A stretch of DNA of 43,603 nt from Patescibacteria group bacterium. Its GTDB lineage: Bacteria; Patescibacteriota; Minisyncoccia; Phycocordibacterales; Phycocordibacteraceae. Both the position numbers and the translations under genes were made by a program. The notes beneath the pieces were generated by a model that saw only the letters and a program-made list of their open reading frames with translations, was not told where the DNA came from and searched no databases. The stretch covers positions 1-43,603 of the forward strand of contig SCVI01000069.1 in the NCBI GenBank assembly GCA_004296925.1, written 5' to 3'. Below are positions 128 through 40,194 of the stretch, piece after piece; within the stretch, counting starts at the first letter, position 1; the number at the start of each line of letters is the position of its first letter.

Positions 128-322
128 GTGACCCTAACGATACAGAACTCAAAACCGCTAGTTGAACATTTGAAGGCAATCAGCAATATAGCGGGAAAGT
201 TCAAAACTCTCCAAAACAAGCCTATTTGGAGCATGGCTCAGAGCAAAGAACTCATCCCCTAATGAAGTTAAAACCTATCAGACATGCTTGATTAGTTGAT
301 TTTCTATCATTTTATACAAAAA

Positions 323-634
323 ATGACTGTAAAACAAAATGGAGGGAGAAGACTTGGAGCTGGAAGAAAGAAAGCACAGCATACTATTGCTACAGAAAAG
401 GCTCGTGAATATTTGATAAAAGAGATAGCAAAAAATCTTGAACCAATAATTACTGCTCAAATTGAAGCAGCAAAAGGAATTTCACATATAGGAAAACAAG
501 GAAGAATATATACTGAACTTCCAAATACAAAGGTTGGAGAATATCTACTGAACCAAGTAGCAGGTAAAGCGGCAATGAGTGTTGAAGTACAAGGAAAAGA
601 AGAACAGCCATTTATTATCGTAATAGACACTTAA
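323..634 (+). CDS. Small basic protein of the island, possible DNA-binding protein
   Basis: ORF track 296..634. The internal ATG at 323 gives MTVKQNGGRRLGAGRKK..., a basic Gly/Arg N-terminus typical of small phage or plasmid DNA-binding proteins. No specific family recognised. Confidence 0.4.
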   Translation: MTVKQNGGRRLGAGRKKAQHTIATEKAREYLIKEIAKNLEPIITAQIEAAKGISHIGKQGRIYTELPNTKVGEYLLNQVAGKAAMSVEVQGKEEQPFIIVIDT

Positions 635-2898: not shown

Positions 2899-3555
2899 TT
2901 AACTACTCAGACAGTTTTGGTATTCATCATTCAGCAAGACATTTATTTTATCTATTGCTTGTTGTTTGCTCGCCTCAATTTCTTTCTTTTGATTTCCCCA
3001 AAAAGCCTGTTGGTTATTGTAGGCTTCATTCGCTAGTTGCGACGCATTGTAATTATATTGTGAGGTGAGATTAGCTTTTTGAACACCAGTCATCATGGGA
3101 TCTATGGCAGATATCTGAATACTCGCATTACTGTAAATCTTGCTTACTGCATCGTTGTATTGTTGTTGTAGAGCAGCAAATACTTCTTGAAGCTTTTTAT
3201 CTACAGTTGCGTTAAGTTTTTGAATGGAACTATCGTAGGAAGTTTGTTTATCCGCTTTACATTTTTCAATCTTTAAATTTATACTTTCTTGAATACTTAT
3301 TACTGGTTCAGCAACTTTTGCTTCTTGTTGAGGAATCTTTTTTGTTGATTTAGAAACATCCCCAACCTGTTTCTTTTCTTCCTCGATTGGAGCAGCACTT
3401 TCTGATTGAGGAGTTGATATTTGTTCTGCCTGTTGTGATTTTTGTTTCTCGTCAAAATACTTAATCCCGAAATATCCGGCTGTAGCTGTTGTACAGAGAA
3501 GGGCTACTATACCTATCAAAAGAGGTATTTGTATGAATCCTTTTTTCATATGCAT
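2899..3555 (-). CDS. Membrane-anchored coiled-coil protein, Q/N/K/S-rich ectodomain
   Basis: ORF track 2899..3657. The likely start is MHMKKGFIQIPLLIGIVALLCTTATAGYFGI (ATG at 3555 or 3549), because the upstream extension overlaps a 10-bp hairpin. One N-terminal TM helix is followed by a long low-complexity helical region. It lies 42 nt downstream of the NTPase on the same strand. Confidence 0.55.
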   Translation of the reverse strand: MHMKKGFIQIPLLIGIVALLCTTATAGYFGIKYFDEKQKSQQAEQISTPQSESAAPIEEEKKQVGDVSKSTKKIPQQEAKVAEPVISIQESINLKIEKCKADKQTSYDSSIQKLNATVDKKLQEVFAALQQQYNDAVSKIYSNASIQISAIDPMMTGVQKANLTSQYNYNASQLANEAYNNQQAFWGNQKKEIEASKQQAIDKINVLLNDEYQNCLSS

Positions 3556-3654
3556 TAGTCCAGTTAATGCTTTTTGATAAATTTGATAATGACCAACACA
3601 AAACCCGCCACTAAGCTGGGAGGCTTGCGCCTCTGTCAGGGTTTCCCCTGACAA

Positions 3655-3743
3655 CACTGGACATGCCCAAACCTAATGACGGGGTCTGTATGTCCAGTGC
3701 TTTGCTGCCATGCCTAGAGTTTTAAGGCTCTAAGTTTAGGCAT
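3655..3743. repeat. Structured element copy 1
   Basis: A 10-bp stem, CACTGGACAT (3655-3664) with ATGTCCAGTG (3690-3699), encloses the loop motif CCTAATGACGGGGTCTGT. A second stem follows: ATGCCTA (3710-3716) with TAGGCAT (3737-3743). Confidence 0.5.
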
Positions 3744-4174
3744 CGGGATATTCTGTTGTCCTAGGTAGTTTACCTCTCTTTCCCTAGCTCTGAAAATGCA
3801 ACGTGTATATTGACTCATCGATTTTTATTGTCTTATATGGTTTTTCAATATTATTGAAAACACAAAGTTGATTTCTATTTCAGCTTGCAAATAAAGAGTA
3901 GAAAAAGAATCAAAAAAGGGAAAAGTACAAATGGATTTAGCCTTTTAAAAAAGCATTTTGTAAAAACAGAAAAAATGTCTTGCAACTTCCTTTCGTTTGA
4001 TTATGATTTTCTTAGATTAGCCGTCGGGTTAATCCAACATCAAGCACTTTTTGACACCATCGGGAAAAATAAAGTACCGACGCATATAGCCTCCACTGCT
4101 GAAGTCGCATAACACTTCACAGAGTGTGAGAAAAAATCCATACAGTGAGCAACCCTCACTGACTAGAGAAAGCT

Positions 4175-4600: not shown

Positions 4601-6145
4601 ATGAAAAAATTAACTGTTCTTAATCGCCCTAAAACAGCAATCATTTACACAAGGGTATCTTCCGATGAACAGGTGCAAGGGTATAGCCTTGATGACCAAG
4701 AAAGAATTTGCAAAGATTATTGCAAACGCAATAAGCTTGAACCCTTAAAGGTATTTAGGGAAGAAGGTGAATCGGCAAAATCTCTTGATCGGACGCAGAT
4801 GACATTAATGATGGAATATTGCATGCGCAATGTAGGAAAGGTCGGCTTTATTGTCGTGTACAGAACAGACAGGTTCTCTCGCAACGCCACAGACCATATC
4901 GTTCAAAGAAAGGCGTTCAGAGATTATGGTGTTGAATTAAGATCGGCTGTTGAGCCAATTGATGAGACTTCGCATGGAAAATTCTTTGAACACATGCTCG
5001 CTGGTCTGAATAATCTTGATAACGACATGAGGACGGAAAGAACTGTCACGGGGATGCGTTCCAAGGCTCTTGATGGTTATTGGTCTTGGGGCGCTCCTTG
5101 GGGGTATAGAAATATAACTGATGTGACAGGAAGGCGTGTCATTGAACCACATCCTCAAAGAGCACCGATTGTGAAATTTCTCTTTGAGGAATATTCAAGA
5201 GGAACCAGAACATTCCGTGAACTTGCAGCAGAAGTTAATGAAATGGGAGACCTGCGTAGCAAGCATGGCTTAAAGATGAGTCATCAGTTAGTGCAAAAAA
5301 TTCTTACCAACCCAATTCATTGCGGAAAAATTGATGTTCCAACTTGGGGAATAGCTACTGAAGGAAAGCATGAGCCTATTGTTTCAGTTGAACTCTTTGA
5401 GGAAGTTCAAAATGTTATGCGAGGTGGCAACTCAAGAACGCAACCGCGAAATATAAATAACCCTGATTTTCCACTCAGAGGAGTTGAATGTTTGTGCGGT
5501 ACCCATATCTCCGGAGGATATGTAACAGGTCGGAGTAAGCGTTATGGATATTACGGTTGTACAAATACAAAGTGTCCCTACAAAAAAGCAATACCAAAGC
5601 AAAAACTAGAAGATAGCTTCACCGAGTTTCTACAGAGATACACGCCAGAAACCAATCTAATGGAGGCTCTTGCGGAAGCTCTAAAGATTGTTCATAGGAA
5701 GCAGAAAAGGCAGAATACCCAACAGACACAAAAGCTTAAACAGAAAATTGAGAAACTAGAAAGGGAGCTAGAGGATTTGCTACAACTGCGGCTTGAGCAA
5801 ACTATAGACAACAGAGATTTTCTTGTTGAAACAGACAAGAGAAAGATTCTGAAGAGAGAAATAGAGGTTGCCTTACAGAATCTGCAGACAAGCAATGCCG
5901 ATGAAGAGTCAGCAATAGATTTCGGCATCAAGCTCATTGAGCAACTGCCACTTCTCTGGAAAGAACTAGAGCCAGCTGAACTGAGGCTCTTGAGAAACTC
6001 TCTCTTTCCTAAAAACATTCAATACACCGATGCTGGTTTTAAAACCGCTGAATTATCACCAATTTACAAGGTAAAAGCCGCATCTGGAACAGATGAAAAT
6101 CGTTTGGTGACCCCACGGGGAATCGAACCCCGGTTCCAAGCTTGA
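4601..6145 (+). CDS. Large serine recombinase (resolvase/invertase N-domain, recombinase domain, zinc ribbon, coiled coil)
   Basis: 514 aa. AIIYTRVSSDEQ is the catalytic-serine motif. VVYRTDRFSRN is present. The Cys cluster is CLCGTH...YYGCTNTKCPYK. A long charged coiled-coil follows (QKLKQKIEKLERELEDLLQL). The last 41 nt run antisense through tRNA-Glu. Confidence 0.9.
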   Translation: MKKLTVLNRPKTAIIYTRVSSDEQVQGYSLDDQERICKDYCKRNKLEPLKVFREEGESAKSLDRTQMTLMMEYCMRNVGKVGFIVVYRTDRFSRNATDHIVQRKAFRDYGVELRSAVEPIDETSHGKFFEHMLAGLNNLDNDMRTERTVTGMRSKALDGYWSWGAPWGYRNITDVTGRRVIEPHPQRAPIVKFLFEEYSRGTRTFRELAAEVNEMGDLRSKHGLKMSHQLVQKILTNPIHCGKIDVPTWGIATEGKHEPIVSVELFEEVQNVMRGGNSRTQPRNINNPDFPLRGVECLCGTHISGGYVTGRSKRYGYYGCTNTKCPYKKAIPKQKLEDSFTEFLQRYTPETNLMEALAEALKIVHRKQKRQNTQQTQKLKQKIEKLERELEDLLQLRLEQTIDNRDFLVETDKRKILKREIEVALQNLQTSNADEESAIDFGIKLIEQLPLLWKELEPAELRLLRNSLFPKNIQYTDAGFKTAELSPIYKVKAASGTDENRLVTPRGIEPRFQA

Positions 6146-6179
6146 AAAGCTTGTGTCCTAACCGTTAGACGATGGGGCC
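6105..6179 (-). tRNA. tRNA-Glu (anticodon UUC), CCA encoded
   Basis: The reverse complement folds as GGCCCCA / D-arm / CAAGC-TTTTCAA-GCTTG / CGGGG-TTCGATT-CCCCG / TGGGGTC-A-CCA. Confidence 0.9.
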
Positions 6180-6355
6180 GAACGAAAAGGAAAATGAATG
6201 CCTCGATTCATTTTCTTTGAGAGAGGCCACGCTTAGCCGAAGGCGACTGGGGCCACATACACTTTTCGTAGCAAGTACGGTCTACCTAAAAGGAAGGCCG
6301 TGTCAAAAAATATAGCATTTTGAGCGGAAAATGCTAGAATCCAGCGAGTTCTAGA

Positions 6356-6518
6356 AATGGAGAGGTGGCTGAGTGGAGGAAATAAGAACTACTTCTTATT
6401 TCCTCCGATTCCGTTTCGGAAAAAACTTTCTGTCTCATTTTATGAGAAAAAGTTTAGGAGGACGAACTTGTTCGAACACTCAGCCTCCTATATCCTTAGA
6501 TTTCGTCACTAGTGTGAC
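6356..6518 (+). repeat. tRNA-Ser 5'-flank module
   Basis: The 21-nt repeat AATGGAGAGGTGGCTGAGTGG occurs at 6356-6376 and 6519-6539. The spacer has hairpins (AGGAAATAAGAA-CTAC-TTCTTATTTCCT, TTCCG-TTT-CGGAA, TCTCAT-TTT-ATGAGA). CACTCAGCC (6477-6485) is antisense to GGCTGAGTG of the repeat. The spacer ends in GTGAC. Confidence 0.6.
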
Positions 6519-6521
6519 AAT

Positions 6522-6608
6522 GGAGAGGTGGCTGAGTGGTCGAAGGCACCACACTCGAAATGTGGCGTACGGGAAACTGTACCGAGAGTTCGAATCTCTC
6601 CCTCTCCG
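6522..6608 (+). tRNA. tRNA-Ser (anticodon CGA), long variable arm, no encoded CCA
   Basis: GGAGAGG acceptor, anticodon loop CTCGAAA, variable arm CGTACGGGAAACTGTAC, T-arm GAGAG-TTCGAAT-CTCTC, 3' strand CCTCTCC-G. Confidence 0.9.
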
Positions 6609-6790
6609 CACCTGATATAAAGATGCCCCGTGAGGGGTTTTCTTTATATCAGGAGGACGAGATTCGAAAACCGGAGCACGAAGGGCGAGGTCGGGCTGGC
6701 GCACTCGACGCATCGTCGCGCCGTAGGGCGTAAGTGAGAACCGGTGTCAAAATGCTTAGTGACGGGAGCCGAATCTCTCCATCTCCGCCA
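6609..6790 (+). repeat. tRNA-Ser 3'-flank module
   Basis: A long hairpin lies at 6611-6653. The antisense T segment GAGATTCGAA lies at 6659-6668, followed by AACCGGAGC, GC-rich hairpins and a terminal GTGAC. The copy CGAATCTCTCCaTCTCCGC at 6770-6788 matches 6591-6609 at 18 of 19 positions and ends in CCA. Confidence 0.6.
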
Positions 6791-29525: not shown

Positions 29526-29699
29526 TGTGGGCGGAAGAGGACTTGGTCACACATAAAATTTCTGACGAAATTTTTGCCCGACCCTGGCTCGGCAATTTTG
29601 CCTTATGCTTCGCATAAACAAAATTACACCTCCGCTTTTCAAGTCCTCACGCACGCAAAACAATTTGCGTGCTTTCCGCCTACACTCGTAAACTCATTG
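29526..29699 (-). repeat. tRNA-Leu(TAG) 3'-flank module
   Basis: The 20-nt repeat TGTGGGCGGAAGAGGACTTG occurs at 29526-29545 and 29698-29717. The plus-strand TTCAAGTCCTC at 29638-29648 is antisense to the T-loop and 3' T-stem on the tRNA strand. GTCAC abuts the distal copy. The hairpin is GCACGCAAA-ACAA-TTTGCGTGC. Confidence 0.65.
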
Positions 29700-30583: not shown

Positions 30584-30762
30584 TTTGTGCCCGGGGTGGG
30601 CGACCAGGAGGTCGTACCGAGAGGGGCTCGGCTACCAGTTTCGGCTCTCCTACGTTCGCCTCTCTGTCAGCCCCAGCTCGCGGTTTTCAGAGACTGAAAA
30701 CACCGCTCCGCTTTTCGAGTCCAACACGCATACGAAGCAGTTCGTATGCTCCAATCACTTTG
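30584..30762 (-). repeat. tRNA-Leu(TAA) 3'-flank module
   Basis: The 17-nt repeat TTTGTGCCCGGGGTGGG occurs at 30584-30600 and 30759-30775. The plus-strand TTCGAGTCCaAC at 30713-30724 matches the T-loop and 3' stem sequence at 11 of 12 positions, in antisense orientation. The hairpin is GCATACGAA-GCAG-TTCGTATGC. Confidence 0.6.
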
Positions 30763-30889: not shown

Positions 30890-31030
30890 GAGGCCATGGC
30901 GGGAATTGGTCACCCGTCATTTTGTGCCGTCACACAAAATGCGCTCGACCCCGACTCGGCATTTCGTGAGACACAAAATATGCCTCCGTCTTTCAATTCC
31001 CGACGTAAAGCGTGCAGATGCTTTACTCAA
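30890..31030 (-). repeat. tRNA-Cys 3'-flank module
   Basis: The 19-nt repeat GAGGCCATGGCGGGAATTG occurs at 30890-30908 and 31033-31051. The plus-strand TTCAATTCCCG lies at 30992-31002. GTCAC abuts the distal copy. The scaffold motif GCTCGACCCCGACTCGGCA (30943-30961) matches the Leu(TAG) module at 29576-29594 at 16 of 19 positions. Confidence 0.65.
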
Positions 31031-38584: not shown

Positions 38585-38748
38585 CAGAAACAAAAACCAG
38601 CCCCTCAGGGGGCGATTTTTGTCTGTGCGTCGGAGCAAGGCATAGGAATGCCTTGCGTGTTGGATTCGAAAGGTCGAGCATCTGAGTAAGCGAAGCGCTC
38701 AGGCGAGACCTGTACAGGGTTCTGTAAGAACCGAATCCAACCCGGTGC
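38585..38748 (+). repeat. tRNA-Tyr 3'-flank module
   Basis: A long hairpin lies at 38585-38626. A copy of the 5' acceptor strand, TGCGTCGG, lies at 38626-38633. The hairpin GCAAGGCAT-AGGA-ATGCCTTGC follows. The antisense T segment GTTGGATTCGAA lies at 38659-38670. The copy CGAATCCAACCCGGtGC at 38732-38748 matches 38567-38583 at 16 of 17 positions. Confidence 0.65.
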
Positions 38749-39755: not shown

Positions 39756-39870
39756 CTACATAGTCATATGTAAAGATCCGAAAGGATTCGAACCGTAGCC
39801 GTAGGGAGCGAAGAGCGACCGTAGGTCTCGAGTCGCAGTAGCGACGAGAGGCGAATCCTTGTGGGCCCGC
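39756..39870 (+). repeat. tRNA-Trp 3'-flank module (short form)
   Basis: The antisense T segment AAGGATTCGAA lies at 39782-39792. The 19-nt copy CGAATCCTTGTGGGCCCGC at 39852-39870 is identical to 39738-39756. Confidence 0.65.
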
Positions 39871-39957: not shown

Positions 39958-40194
39958 ATGTATTACGTCTATATCCTAAGGTGTGCAGACCAAAAACCGT
40001 ATACTGGTTGCACAGAAAATATTAAGGAACGACTAGAACGTCACTCAAAAGGTTACGTACCTGCGACGAGAGAACGTCGTCCTATCAATCTCACTCAATA
40101 TGTGGCATTTCAAGATAAGCAAAAAGCTTTTGAGTTTGAAAAGTATCTTAAATCAGGTTCTGGTAGGGCTTTTATAAAAAAACATCTTTCTTGA
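39958..40194 (+). CDS. GIY-YIG nuclease-domain protein (stand-alone URI domain)
   Basis: 78 aa, with YYVYILRCADQKPYTGCTENIKERLERH. Confidence 0.75.
   Translation: MYYVYILRCADQKPYTGCTENIKERLERHSKGYVPATRERRPINLTQYVAFQDKQKAFEFEKYLKSGSGRAFIKKHLS

Follow-up and report, generated by a model that had tools for sequence, protein, structure and literature searches.

Prophages and genomic islands that use a tyrosine integrase take transfer RNA (tRNA) genes as their targets, restore the gene with an end carried on the insert, and leave a displaced fragment that decays. The repeat that they produce runs from a loop of the tRNA to the end of the gene or beyond it, and repeats from the T loop to the 3' end are reportedly classic for tRNA-integrating elements. 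A tyrosine recombinase requires an inverted core site, and serine recombinases leave only a 2-bp crossover. These islands and prophages are the nearest known kind to the structures described here, which we call modules and which flank the tRNA-Ser(CGA) gene on both sides in a 43,603-nucleotide (nt) contig (SCVI01000069.1; the whole stretch is referred to as the window). The modules have in common with them the tRNA-gene target, the restored gene, the decaying displaced fragment, and a repeat that extends from a loop (the T loop and, at one locus, probably the anticodon loop) to or beyond the end of the gene. Unlike prophages and islands, the modules are 80 to 190 bp long, have no integrase, other gene, cargo, or core-site symmetry, and possess a conserved, covarying interior fold and an arm antisense to the tRNA. 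They also often replace the 5' end of the gene (in the D loop), form arrays, and set several unrelated cores within one architecture.

Miniature inverted-repeat transposable elements (MITEs) such as Correia, RUP, and BOX resemble the modules in being small, noncoding, strongly folded, numerous within a genome, and present or absent among relatives. In contrast to MITEs, the modules are not dispersed (105 of 117 matches to our class A model lie by a same-strand tRNA), their arms are tRNA derived and re-matched to each tRNA instead of forming element-specific terminal repeats, and their duplication, unlike a short target-site duplication of constant length, spans 12 to 66 nt and is fixed at one boundary only. 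Mobile group I introns of bacterial tRNA genes share the location in tRNA loops, horizontal spread, and a structured RNA with a guide that pairs with the exon, and one module even holds a GIY-YIG open reading frame (ORF). Unlike introns of groups I and II, however, the modules leave the tRNA uninterrupted, have cores that are too small, match no intron model, and duplicate host sequence. In Allomyces atp6, an endonuclease-bearing fungal mitochondrial insert carries a replacement 3' end and displaces the original one. As with the modules, a spare end arrives, the host gene works, and the old end survives as a downstream pseudofragment, but that system concerns protein genes, is driven by an encoded endonuclease, and has no antisense arm or structured RNA core. 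Finally, the omega RNAs of IscB and TnpB and the bridge RNAs of IS110 place a scaffold beside a stretch of ∼20 nt that matches their own target. The modules have no adjacent IscB, TnpB, or IS110 gene and no Rfam match, and whereas omega and bridge RNA elements do not duplicate 20 nt of target, the modules hold both antisense and sense copies of it.

Full-text literature searches returned no description of such modules. We conclude with high confidence that they are insertions of a recurrent family, and comparisons among related loci suggest that they are probably non-autonomous, tRNA-gene-specific elements of an undescribed kind.

Insertions on both sides of tRNA-Ser(CGA)

ARAGORN and Rfam (57.2 bits) both identify one tRNA-Ser(CGA) at the locus (plus strand, gene 6522-6609, or 6519 to 6609 with the preceding AAT), in agreement with the single functional gene assumed in a preliminary description of this DNA. 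The 21-nt AATGGAGAGGTGGCTGAGTGG occurs exactly at 6356-6376 and again at 6519-6539, just as that description reported, and can be extended to 26 nt at 92% identity. At the other end, the final ∼19 nt of the gene (6591-6609, no encoded CCA) form the proximal copy of a second repeat, CGAATCTCTCC[C/A]TCTCCGC, whose distal copy at 6770-6788 is identical at 18 of 19 positions. The distal copy extends to ..CCGCCA (6785-6790) and the gene reads ..CCGCAC, confirming that only the former ends in CCA. The arrangement is real DNA and an assembly artifact is ruled out, because contigs from two independent groundwater metagenomes (2019 and 2025) cross every junction with zero differences and zero joints. 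Compared with shuffled sequence, the upstream flank and the 3' module are strongly folded (z-scores of -7.15 and -4.24, respectively), and counts at 336 related tRNA loci exclude a chance origin of the repeats.

We scanned metagenomes with the 5' half of the window tRNA-Ser and recovered 18 loci. The 5' site is occupied in the window and in L106, which carries a homologous module, and is empty in L100, L097, and L102 (aligned) and in L105 (by inspection only). Occupied and empty loci share an upstream block, AAATATAGCATTT..AAAATGCTAGAATC, and a divergent tRNA-Glu, and the tRNA-Ser of empty sites begins exactly at the position of the window's upstream copy. Because empty-site tRNAs start at that point, 6356-6376 is the original 5' end, and an insertion of 163 bp took place behind G18 of the D loop, bringing a new +1..+18; the first 18 nt of the present gene are the copy that arrived with the 5' module. 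A second lineage behaves alike, with L107 occupied and L112, L111, and L113 empty within the same flank. The preliminary description had proposed comparing the locus in relatives; the empty sites reveal the module as an insertion and the upstream copy as the original, both of which it had missed.

The block that anchors this alignment is a promoter-like palindrome, AAATATAGCATTTT..AAAATGCTAGAATC, at 6307 to 6341 on the plus strand, between the divergent tRNA-Glu and tRNA-Ser. It is invariant in occupied and empty relatives and represents the native upstream context of tRNA-Ser. Within it lies a perfect inverted repeat, TAGCATTTT-N6-AAAATGCTA, flanked by outward -10-like hexamers (TATATT on the minus strand and TAGAAT on the plus strand). 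The block is kept in distant metagenome relatives and resembles a bidirectional promoter or operator. A sigma-70 scan gave no match in it, and its role as a promoter is putative.

On the plus strand, the displaced original 5' end (-3..+18, up to the D-loop GG) occupies 6356 to 6376, the position, relative to the block, at which the intact tRNA begins in L100, L097, and L102. The 5' module proper follows over 142 nt (6377 to 6518, plus strand) and comprises H1 (6375-6406), H2 (∼6409-6421), H3 (6423-6455), an AGGAGGAC motif (6456-6463), a hairpin with the antisense arm, and a terminal hairpin (6505-6518). Where three hairpins had been described in this spacer, folding gives five, and the structure is closed where the upstream copy pairs with the antisense stretch. 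Homologous 5' modules (window, L106, and L107) show compensatory changes in H1 to H3. The module belongs to a 13-member sequence family found 31 to 57 nt upstream of tRNA-Tyr, tRNA-Ser, and tRNA-Glu, whose hidden Markov model matches the window at 6371-6483 (E = 8.5e-18). The general order of 5' modules is a copy of +1 to ∼16-22, a long hairpin whose loop is CUGC or GGGA, additional hairpins, an antisense stretch complementary to tRNA positions ∼15-38, an A/T-rich spacer, and the tRNA.

The antisense arm of the window's 5' module (6471 to 6489, plus strand; inverted repeat I1) is 19 nt long, 89% complementary to tRNA positions 5-23, and straddles the insertion point between positions 18 and 19; its core, TTCGAACACTCA, is kept in L106 and L107. 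The preliminary description had noticed part of this arm, CACTCAGCC at 6477-6485, and had reported an antisense element upstream only, although a second one exists downstream at 6653-6668. The GTGAC that it placed directly ahead of the tRNA repeat is there (6514-6518, abutting the repeat) and forms the 3' strand of the small hairpin GUCAC-UAGU-GUGAC (6505-6518). It had also linked the two flanks through a shared 10-mer. AGGAGGACGA does occur twice, with the downstream copy at 6651-6660 as given and the upstream copy at 6456-6465, one base off from the earlier position. The link itself probably does not exist: the upstream occurrence is a motif of the 5' family, seen as AAGGAGGACAAT on tRNA-Tyr modules, and the downstream one falls within the arm that is antisense to the T arm. 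A 51-codon plus-strand ORF (6357-6512) starts with an ATG formed from AAT|GG of the upstream copy and reads through the 5' module. It is probably spurious, since neither frame nor start is kept in L106.

The 3' insertion, 179 bp in the T loop, is the mirror image of the 5' insertion (163 bp including the repeat, in the D loop), and both flanks are modules of one kind, as had been proposed. Its first part is a terminator-like hairpin with a T run (6611 to 6653, plus strand; core 6625-6638 plus TTTTCTTT). The antisense arm follows at 6651 to 6668 (plus strand), where inverted repeat I3 (16 nt, 6653-6668) is 88% complementary to the T loop, the 3' strand of the T stem, and part of the acceptor 3' strand (tRNA 6589-6604). 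The same 3' arm is present in those modules with a distal copy that we dissected. The core (6657 to 6779, plus strand) is a class A three-way junction detected by covariance model R1 (27 bits, E = 5e-5), in which P1 joins the arm to the distal copy, P2 contains a GGA/GA internal loop, and P3 completes the junction. The module ends in the displaced tRNA 3' end, recognized by repeat comparison, which runs from C56 of the T loop (6770 to 6790, plus strand) with one mismatch and an encoded CCA. The tRNA-Ser genes of L097, L100, and L106 read CTCCGCCAG, with CCA encoded as in the window's distal copy; these genes have the same 5' half as the window tRNA-Ser and no distal copy in their trailers. The CCA on the distal copy fits the simple reading that it is the displaced native end. 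The insertions on the two sides of tRNA-Ser are independent of each other, and the locus is doubly occupied.

Variation was also seen at this 3' module among metagenome contigs. In the strain of run X7, whose Na/Ca exchanger gene is ∼98% identical, 916 nt of unrelated sequence replaces the 175-nt module interior (6609-6785), and variants carried by X3 and X4 have 14 nt in place of the hairpin at 6706-6753. Contigs that carry the Na/Ca exchanger gene end at the module, and related-metagenome contigs aligned to the window are short and come in many variant forms.

Occupied and empty alleles were found for 3' modules as well. The window tRNA-Lys is empty and its counterparts in L018, L022, L023, and L026 are occupied; the distal copy of L018 lies at the native spacing from the stop codon of the convergent gene. 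In the tRNA-Lys pair, the terminator hairpin, equivalent to that behind tRNA-Ser, is present in the occupied allele only. The L087 Glu/Ser pair carries 5' and 3' modules on tRNA-Glu and a 3' module only on tRNA-Ser. In L104, L111, L112, and L113, tRNA-Ser genes without a full module are followed by a terminator hairpin and then by GCGGAGAGG, which complements the 3' strand of the acceptor. This stretch extends the terminator stem into the tRNA and may be a native feature or a minimal remnant.

Modules across the window and the clade

The source of the window is a genome of Paceibacteria (Parcubacteria, candidate phyla radiation [CPR]). The window contains the bacterial genes gyrA, infB, and clpB, and the 80 closest infB loci all derive from Patescibacteria, mostly labeled Paceibacteria, Parcubacteria, or Kaiserbacteria, at no more than 67% amino-acid identity. 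ARAGORN found 342 tRNAs in these 80 loci plus the window, and 386 after the 18 metagenome loci were added. Exact downstream copies of the 3' end accompany 89 of the 342 tRNAs and upstream copies of the 5' end accompany 29. In a comparison limited to 336 tRNAs with full flanks, we counted downstream 3' copies at 75 tRNAs versus 2 in the control, a downstream antisense T arm at 72 versus 6, and upstream 5' copies (at least 12 of 14 matches) at 31 versus 1. The 5' duplications, called rare in the preliminary description, occur on tRNA-Tyr, -Leu, -Cys, -Lys, -Glu, and -Ser and are a regular feature of the clade. Overall, about one in three tRNA genes sampled from these ultra-small groundwater bacteria carries a module.

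Six of the eight window tRNAs (ARAGORN and Rfam), namely Ser, Leu-TAG, Leu-TAA, Cys, Tyr, and Trp, have a 3' module; tRNA-Glu and tRNA-Lys have none. In all six, an antisense T-loop region is followed 100 to 180 nt on by a sense copy of the tRNA 3' end, which begins at C56 in 5 of 6. Three modules lie on the minus strand: the class A modules of tRNA-Leu(TAG) (29527 to 29698, distal copy 29527-29545; 89.7 bits) and tRNA-Cys (30890 to 31030; 92.4 bits) and the class A-like module of tRNA-Leu(TAA) (30587 to 30761; 60.6 bits). On the plus strand are the class B module of tRNA-Tyr (38586 to 38745; core ..GGTC[hairpin]GACCTGTACAGGGTTCTGTAAGAAC) and the class C module of tRNA-Trp (39757 to 39870; ..GGTCTCGAG[hairpin]CGAGAGG, then the distal copy).

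Across the 1.36 Mb searched, the elements are ∼80 to 190 bp long, ORF-less, strongly folded, and located almost exclusively beside Paceibacteria tRNA genes. A full 3' module consists, in order, of the tRNA, a terminator-like hairpin with T run, an anti-acceptor stretch (in many modules, not all), hairpin Pa (often with a CUGC loop), the anti-T arm, the core, and the distal copy. One boundary of the repeat is fixed, in the loop, and its outer end varies, giving lengths of 12 to 66 nt that sometimes include the whole terminator. At least three unrelated 3' cores combine with the same arms: class A cores end in GTGAC, class B cores read ..GGTTG[hairpin]CAACCTGTAC..GTAAG, and class C cores read GGTYTCGAG[hairpin]CGAGAGG. 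A pattern search for class C gave 7 matches, each of them downstream of a tRNA on the same strand. For classes A and B, loose regular expressions lacked specificity, and a covariance model was used instead. With the class A model we obtained 117 matches (E ≤ 0.1), the window Ser module among them, and 105 of the 117 lie 15 to 390 nt downstream of a same-strand tRNA.

Eleven class A cores can be aligned as a three-way junction, P1/P2/P3, with 92% of cells paired and ten pairs changed on both sides, and 0 of 500 shuffles matched the score. In class A modules GUGAC is the conserved base of P3; this base, GUCG:UGAC, contains a G.U that is invariant in this alignment and nearly invariant overall. 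Covariation persists in the larger alignment, which is itself fitted to the model. In P2 and P3, G.U pairs outnumber A.C mismatches by 128 to 10. Perfect hairpins with a CUGC loop are also strand biased in tRNA flanks (66 on the sense strand versus 7 on the antisense strand); an enrichment of GNRA loops on the sense strand was expected and not seen in this hairpin census (11 versus 22). These patterns show selection on a folded sense-strand nucleic acid, which RNA and single-stranded DNA (ssDNA) would fit alike.

The arm of every module examined is the complement of intact tRNA sequence, located either at the insertion point or immediately 3' of it. At positions that distinguish the distal copy from the gene, the arm matches the real tRNA by 141 to 0 and 34 to 3, counts that are biased by the way in which arms were located. 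Counts of G.U versus A.C did not discriminate for the pairing between arm and tRNA.

Several loci depart from the common boundaries. The upstream copy of the L086 tRNA-Tyr (3708-3790) spans positions 1-36, with a junction that is probably in the anticodon loop, and that of the L096 tRNA-Ser covers positions 1-8 only. The tRNA-Leu(TAG) genes of L068, L079, and L090 have partial duplications of the anticodon and variable-arm region.

Turnover, mechanism, and competing explanations

Comparison of syntenic genomes suggests that modules turn over and are shared horizontally between genomes. The window is syntenic with L022, L023, L024, and L026, with genes at 72 to 78% nucleotide identity, and yet tRNA-Leu(TAG) with its module is 98% identical to that of L026 over 259 nt. 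The orthologous tRNA-Trp carries a class C module in the window, class B in L024 and L026, and class A in L017 and L094. Cores of the L026 tRNA-Cys and the L018 tRNA-Tyr are 91% identical with different arms, versus 67% for the orthologous tRNA-Cys cores of the window and L026. Modules also accumulate: behind tRNA-Leu(TAG) in L038 (15036-15900), a class B array holds five 3'-end copies with a 182-nt period (distal copies at +162, +344, +527, and +709), and the units compared are 100% identical. Two different 5' modules stand in L080, and in L081 a class A core comes after a class B core. Of the copies in the arrays checked (L081 Leu-TAG and L016 Lys), the more distal one is shorter.

Distal copies look like neutral sequence under random decay: only 1 of 52 variants equals a real allele, versus 0.88 expected for random mutants. 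The idea that distal copies are native alleles of a different donor is ruled out by this match rate, which equals the random expectation. Two routes could produce the observed structure, either a staggered-cut insertion that duplicates the target or a recombinational replacement that brings a new end; they are indistinguishable here because the distal variants match alleles only at the random rate.

Under the reading that we favor, in which the modules are non-autonomous elements, they would pass from one tRNA gene to another and from genome to genome. The antisense arm, as RNA or as tRNA-sense ssDNA, would recognize the target, and the duplicated tRNA end would render the insertion harmless and regenerate the target, which would explain the arrays and the rapid turnover. 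A 5' module would leave the transcript with the leader via RNase P, and a 3' module would sit behind the terminator. The palindromic T-loop box TTCGAA, universally conserved and present on both sides of the core, may permit core swaps between the modules of different tRNAs. We hold the guide-like arm and homing-type spread as a way of working with moderate confidence. It is conceivable, if doubtful, that the modules are guide-bearing mobile elements in the strict sense, in which an arm of ∼20 nt on a structured RNA or folded ssDNA finds the tRNA loop and a trans-acting enzyme, supplied by the host or by an element, inserts the element. Insertion would again regenerate the target so that elements pile up, and the machinery would have alternative scaffolds in classes A, B, and C and the 5' families.

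A number of observations weigh against the favored reading. We found no transposase, integrase, or reverse transcriptase associated with the modules, and the case for mobility is built from comparative patterns. The window holds no near-identical module copies at different sites, and three pattern scans of viral contigs yielded no real module (two gave chance matches in coding DNA and one gave nothing). The count of 141 to 0 for arms matching the real tRNA is skewed by the search method, and the arm may be no more than half of a structural hairpin whose other strand is the proximal tRNA end. P1, which pairs the arm with the distal copy, shows no clear RNA-type signature (37 G.U versus 27 A.C), and G.T pairs are tolerated in DNA hairpins too, so RNA and ssDNA are not separable on these grounds. 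In the RNA runs examined, coverage is essentially only of tRNAs of other organisms. The very high occupancy in tiny genomes could reflect a host need for the modules.

This last point leads to an alternative that we consider unlikely, in which the modules are host-functional leaders and trailers of tRNA precursors, inherited mainly vertically, whose arm gates folding, flags read-through transcripts for destruction, or guides processing. The covarying helices with one nearly invariant G.U, the strand-specific signals, the high occupancy in reduced genomes, and the complementarity of the arm to the real tRNA are all in keeping with such a role, as are the competition of the arms with the cloverleaf in whole-locus folds and the anti-acceptor extension of the terminator stem even where no full module exists (L104 and L111-L113). 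Vertical maintenance is nevertheless hard to reconcile with orthologous tRNAs of close relatives that have no modules (the window Glu and Lys genes are empty), with unrelated cores on the same orthologous tRNA, with a module 98% identical between genomes that are ∼77% identical elsewhere, with arrays of up to five units, and with distal copies that decay neutrally (1 versus 0.88 expected). An origin as scars or miniatures of tRNA-integrating integrase elements, with the repeats as attL/attR, the interior as a remnant of an attP arm, and movement perhaps in trans, is improbable. Direct repeats of the tRNA end (21 nt and 19 nt) do flank the inserts, their extension from the T loop to or past the 3' end is the classic signature, their length varies (12 to 66 nt), and tRNA-Ser has a gene for a large serine recombinase 380 bp away. 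This recombinase (4601-6145), however, is outside both repeats and belongs to a class that leaves only a 2-bp crossover. The inserts of 80 to 190 bp have no ORF and no integrase, recombinase, or cargo between the repeats, and apart from the L038 array distal copies never lie kilobases away in the sampled loci; a 6-kb long-range search for autonomous elements between tRNA-end repeats likewise returned that array only. The interiors are conserved covarying hairpins with strand-specific loops, not protein-binding arms, and what precedes the distal junction is GTGAC, GTAAG, or GAGAGG instead of the 5' strand of the T stem, so that the inverted core site is missing. D-loop 5' modules are moreover common, and we agree with the preliminary description that a 3'-targeting integrase fails to account for the 5' duplication.

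Ribozyme-type introns or RNA exchange, in which a self-cutting RNA joins U55 to the distal C56 or swaps a damaged end, are very improbable. This idea draws on the three-way junction with conserved purine-rich joints and a near-invariant G.U beside the distal-copy junction, on a guide-like arm that pairs across the junction, and on the GIY-YIG ORF inside one module, which recalls the homing endonuclease genes of group I introns. Yet the gene is already intact and splicing is unneeded, the cores of 60 to 110 nt are far below the size of introns of groups I and II, at least three unrelated cores occur with the same arms, and between the tRNA and the 3' module stands a terminator-like hairpin. With cutoffs as loose as E = 10, the modules matched no ribozyme or intron family of Rfam; small self-cleaving ribozymes (hammerhead, twister, twister-sister, pistol, hatchet, HDV-like, and hairpin) were absent from them at E up to 10 or 5. 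We give practically no credence to 6356-6520 being a decayed second tRNA-Ser, or to the flanks being leftovers of a tandem duplication, despite the exact tRNA pieces in both flanks. The preliminary description doubted the decayed gene and named recognizable anticodon and T arms as the evidence that would speak for it; there are none after position 18, where H1 to H3, conserved in L106 and L107, stand instead, and neither ARAGORN nor Rfam gives a tRNA-like match upstream even at E = 10, so the second-gene reading is refuted. The same family also lies upstream of tRNA-Tyr and tRNA-Glu, and the modules hold antisense, not sense, tRNA sequence. Among further candidates, a primer-binding site was dropped because the arm leaves CCA uncovered, and box C/D or H/ACA guides, the k-turn, the hammerhead, the integron attC, and a casposon-type duplication were considered and dropped.

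If the modules are tRNA-gene-specific elements, a considerable fraction of tRNA genes in a major ultra-small lineage would host tiny, structured, gene-sparing insertions, and gene-less elements with target-matched arms and exchangeable cores would offer a testable case of insertion directed by noncoding sequence, possibly with programmable targeting. Should a host function prove correct, the modules would represent a new layer of tRNA precursor control. For CPR biology, the modules may make up ∼1% of a 1-Mb genome. The displaced ends and arms mislead tRNA and island finders in annotation, and the public assemblies examined have contig ends at or near these repeats.

Neighboring genes and RNA data

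The inserts of 142 nt and ∼160 nt overlap ORFs of at least 40 amino acids (aa) (e.g., 6357-6512, 6373-6615, 6480-6713, and 6536-6733) that are unsupported as genes. Pfam scans of 16 window ORFs, including the tRNA-Ser flanks, found no tnpA, tnpB, iscB, or IS110 recombinase. Rfam 15 contains no omega or bridge RNA, T-box or riboswitch, intron, or ribozyme family that matches the modules, and unlike T-box and riboswitch leaders, the modules flank tRNAs, not regulated ORFs. Gathering-threshold and E-value scans of all module regions with Rfam returned only tRNAs and LOOT.

A small GIY-YIG nuclease ORF (78 aa; 39958 to 40191, plus strand; PF01541, E = 1.1e-13) lies just after the tRNA-Trp module. 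Proteins of 77 to 78 aa consisting of this domain only are syntenic with tRNA-Trp in three genomes at 64 to 67% identity. In L023 the ORF (141-374, minus strand) is inside the Trp module, between the tRNA and the distal copy, and in L016 (2136-2369, minus strand) it immediately follows tRNA-Trp and precedes a class C tail. It is absent from the Ser modules and from the other modules examined. Because the ORF is diverged like the rest of the genome and absent from other modules, we treat it only as a lead toward a mechanism.

Transcript data touch two other modules. Wastewater metatranscriptome contigs (X25 and X28) join 29550 to 29698, so that tRNA-Leu is followed by GTGAC and the distal copy with 147 nt skipped; with a short side of 25 nt, this join could derive from another organism's locus, an alignment artifact, or processed RNA. 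In L038 (14318-14468), a 151-nt contig from run X32 (depth 2, no differences) extends from tRNA-Lys through the T run and 38 nt into the module, which is weak evidence of read-through or DNA carry-over.

The serine recombinase at 4601-6145 (plus strand) has Resolvase and Recombinase domains, and its best NCBIfam matches, CcrB and XisF, are far below cutoff. Its last ∼13 codons overlap the 3' end of tRNA-Glu (6105-6179, minus strand) in antisense. Farther upstream, the minus strand encodes a LOOT RNA (Rfam RF03000, an orphan structured RNA; 3620-3742, 80.7 bits) in a block that also holds a KAP-family NTPase (655-2856) and an unannotated 252-aa ORF (2899-3657). The recombinase, KAP NTPase, and LOOT RNA may together constitute an integrated element that ends at tRNA-Glu.

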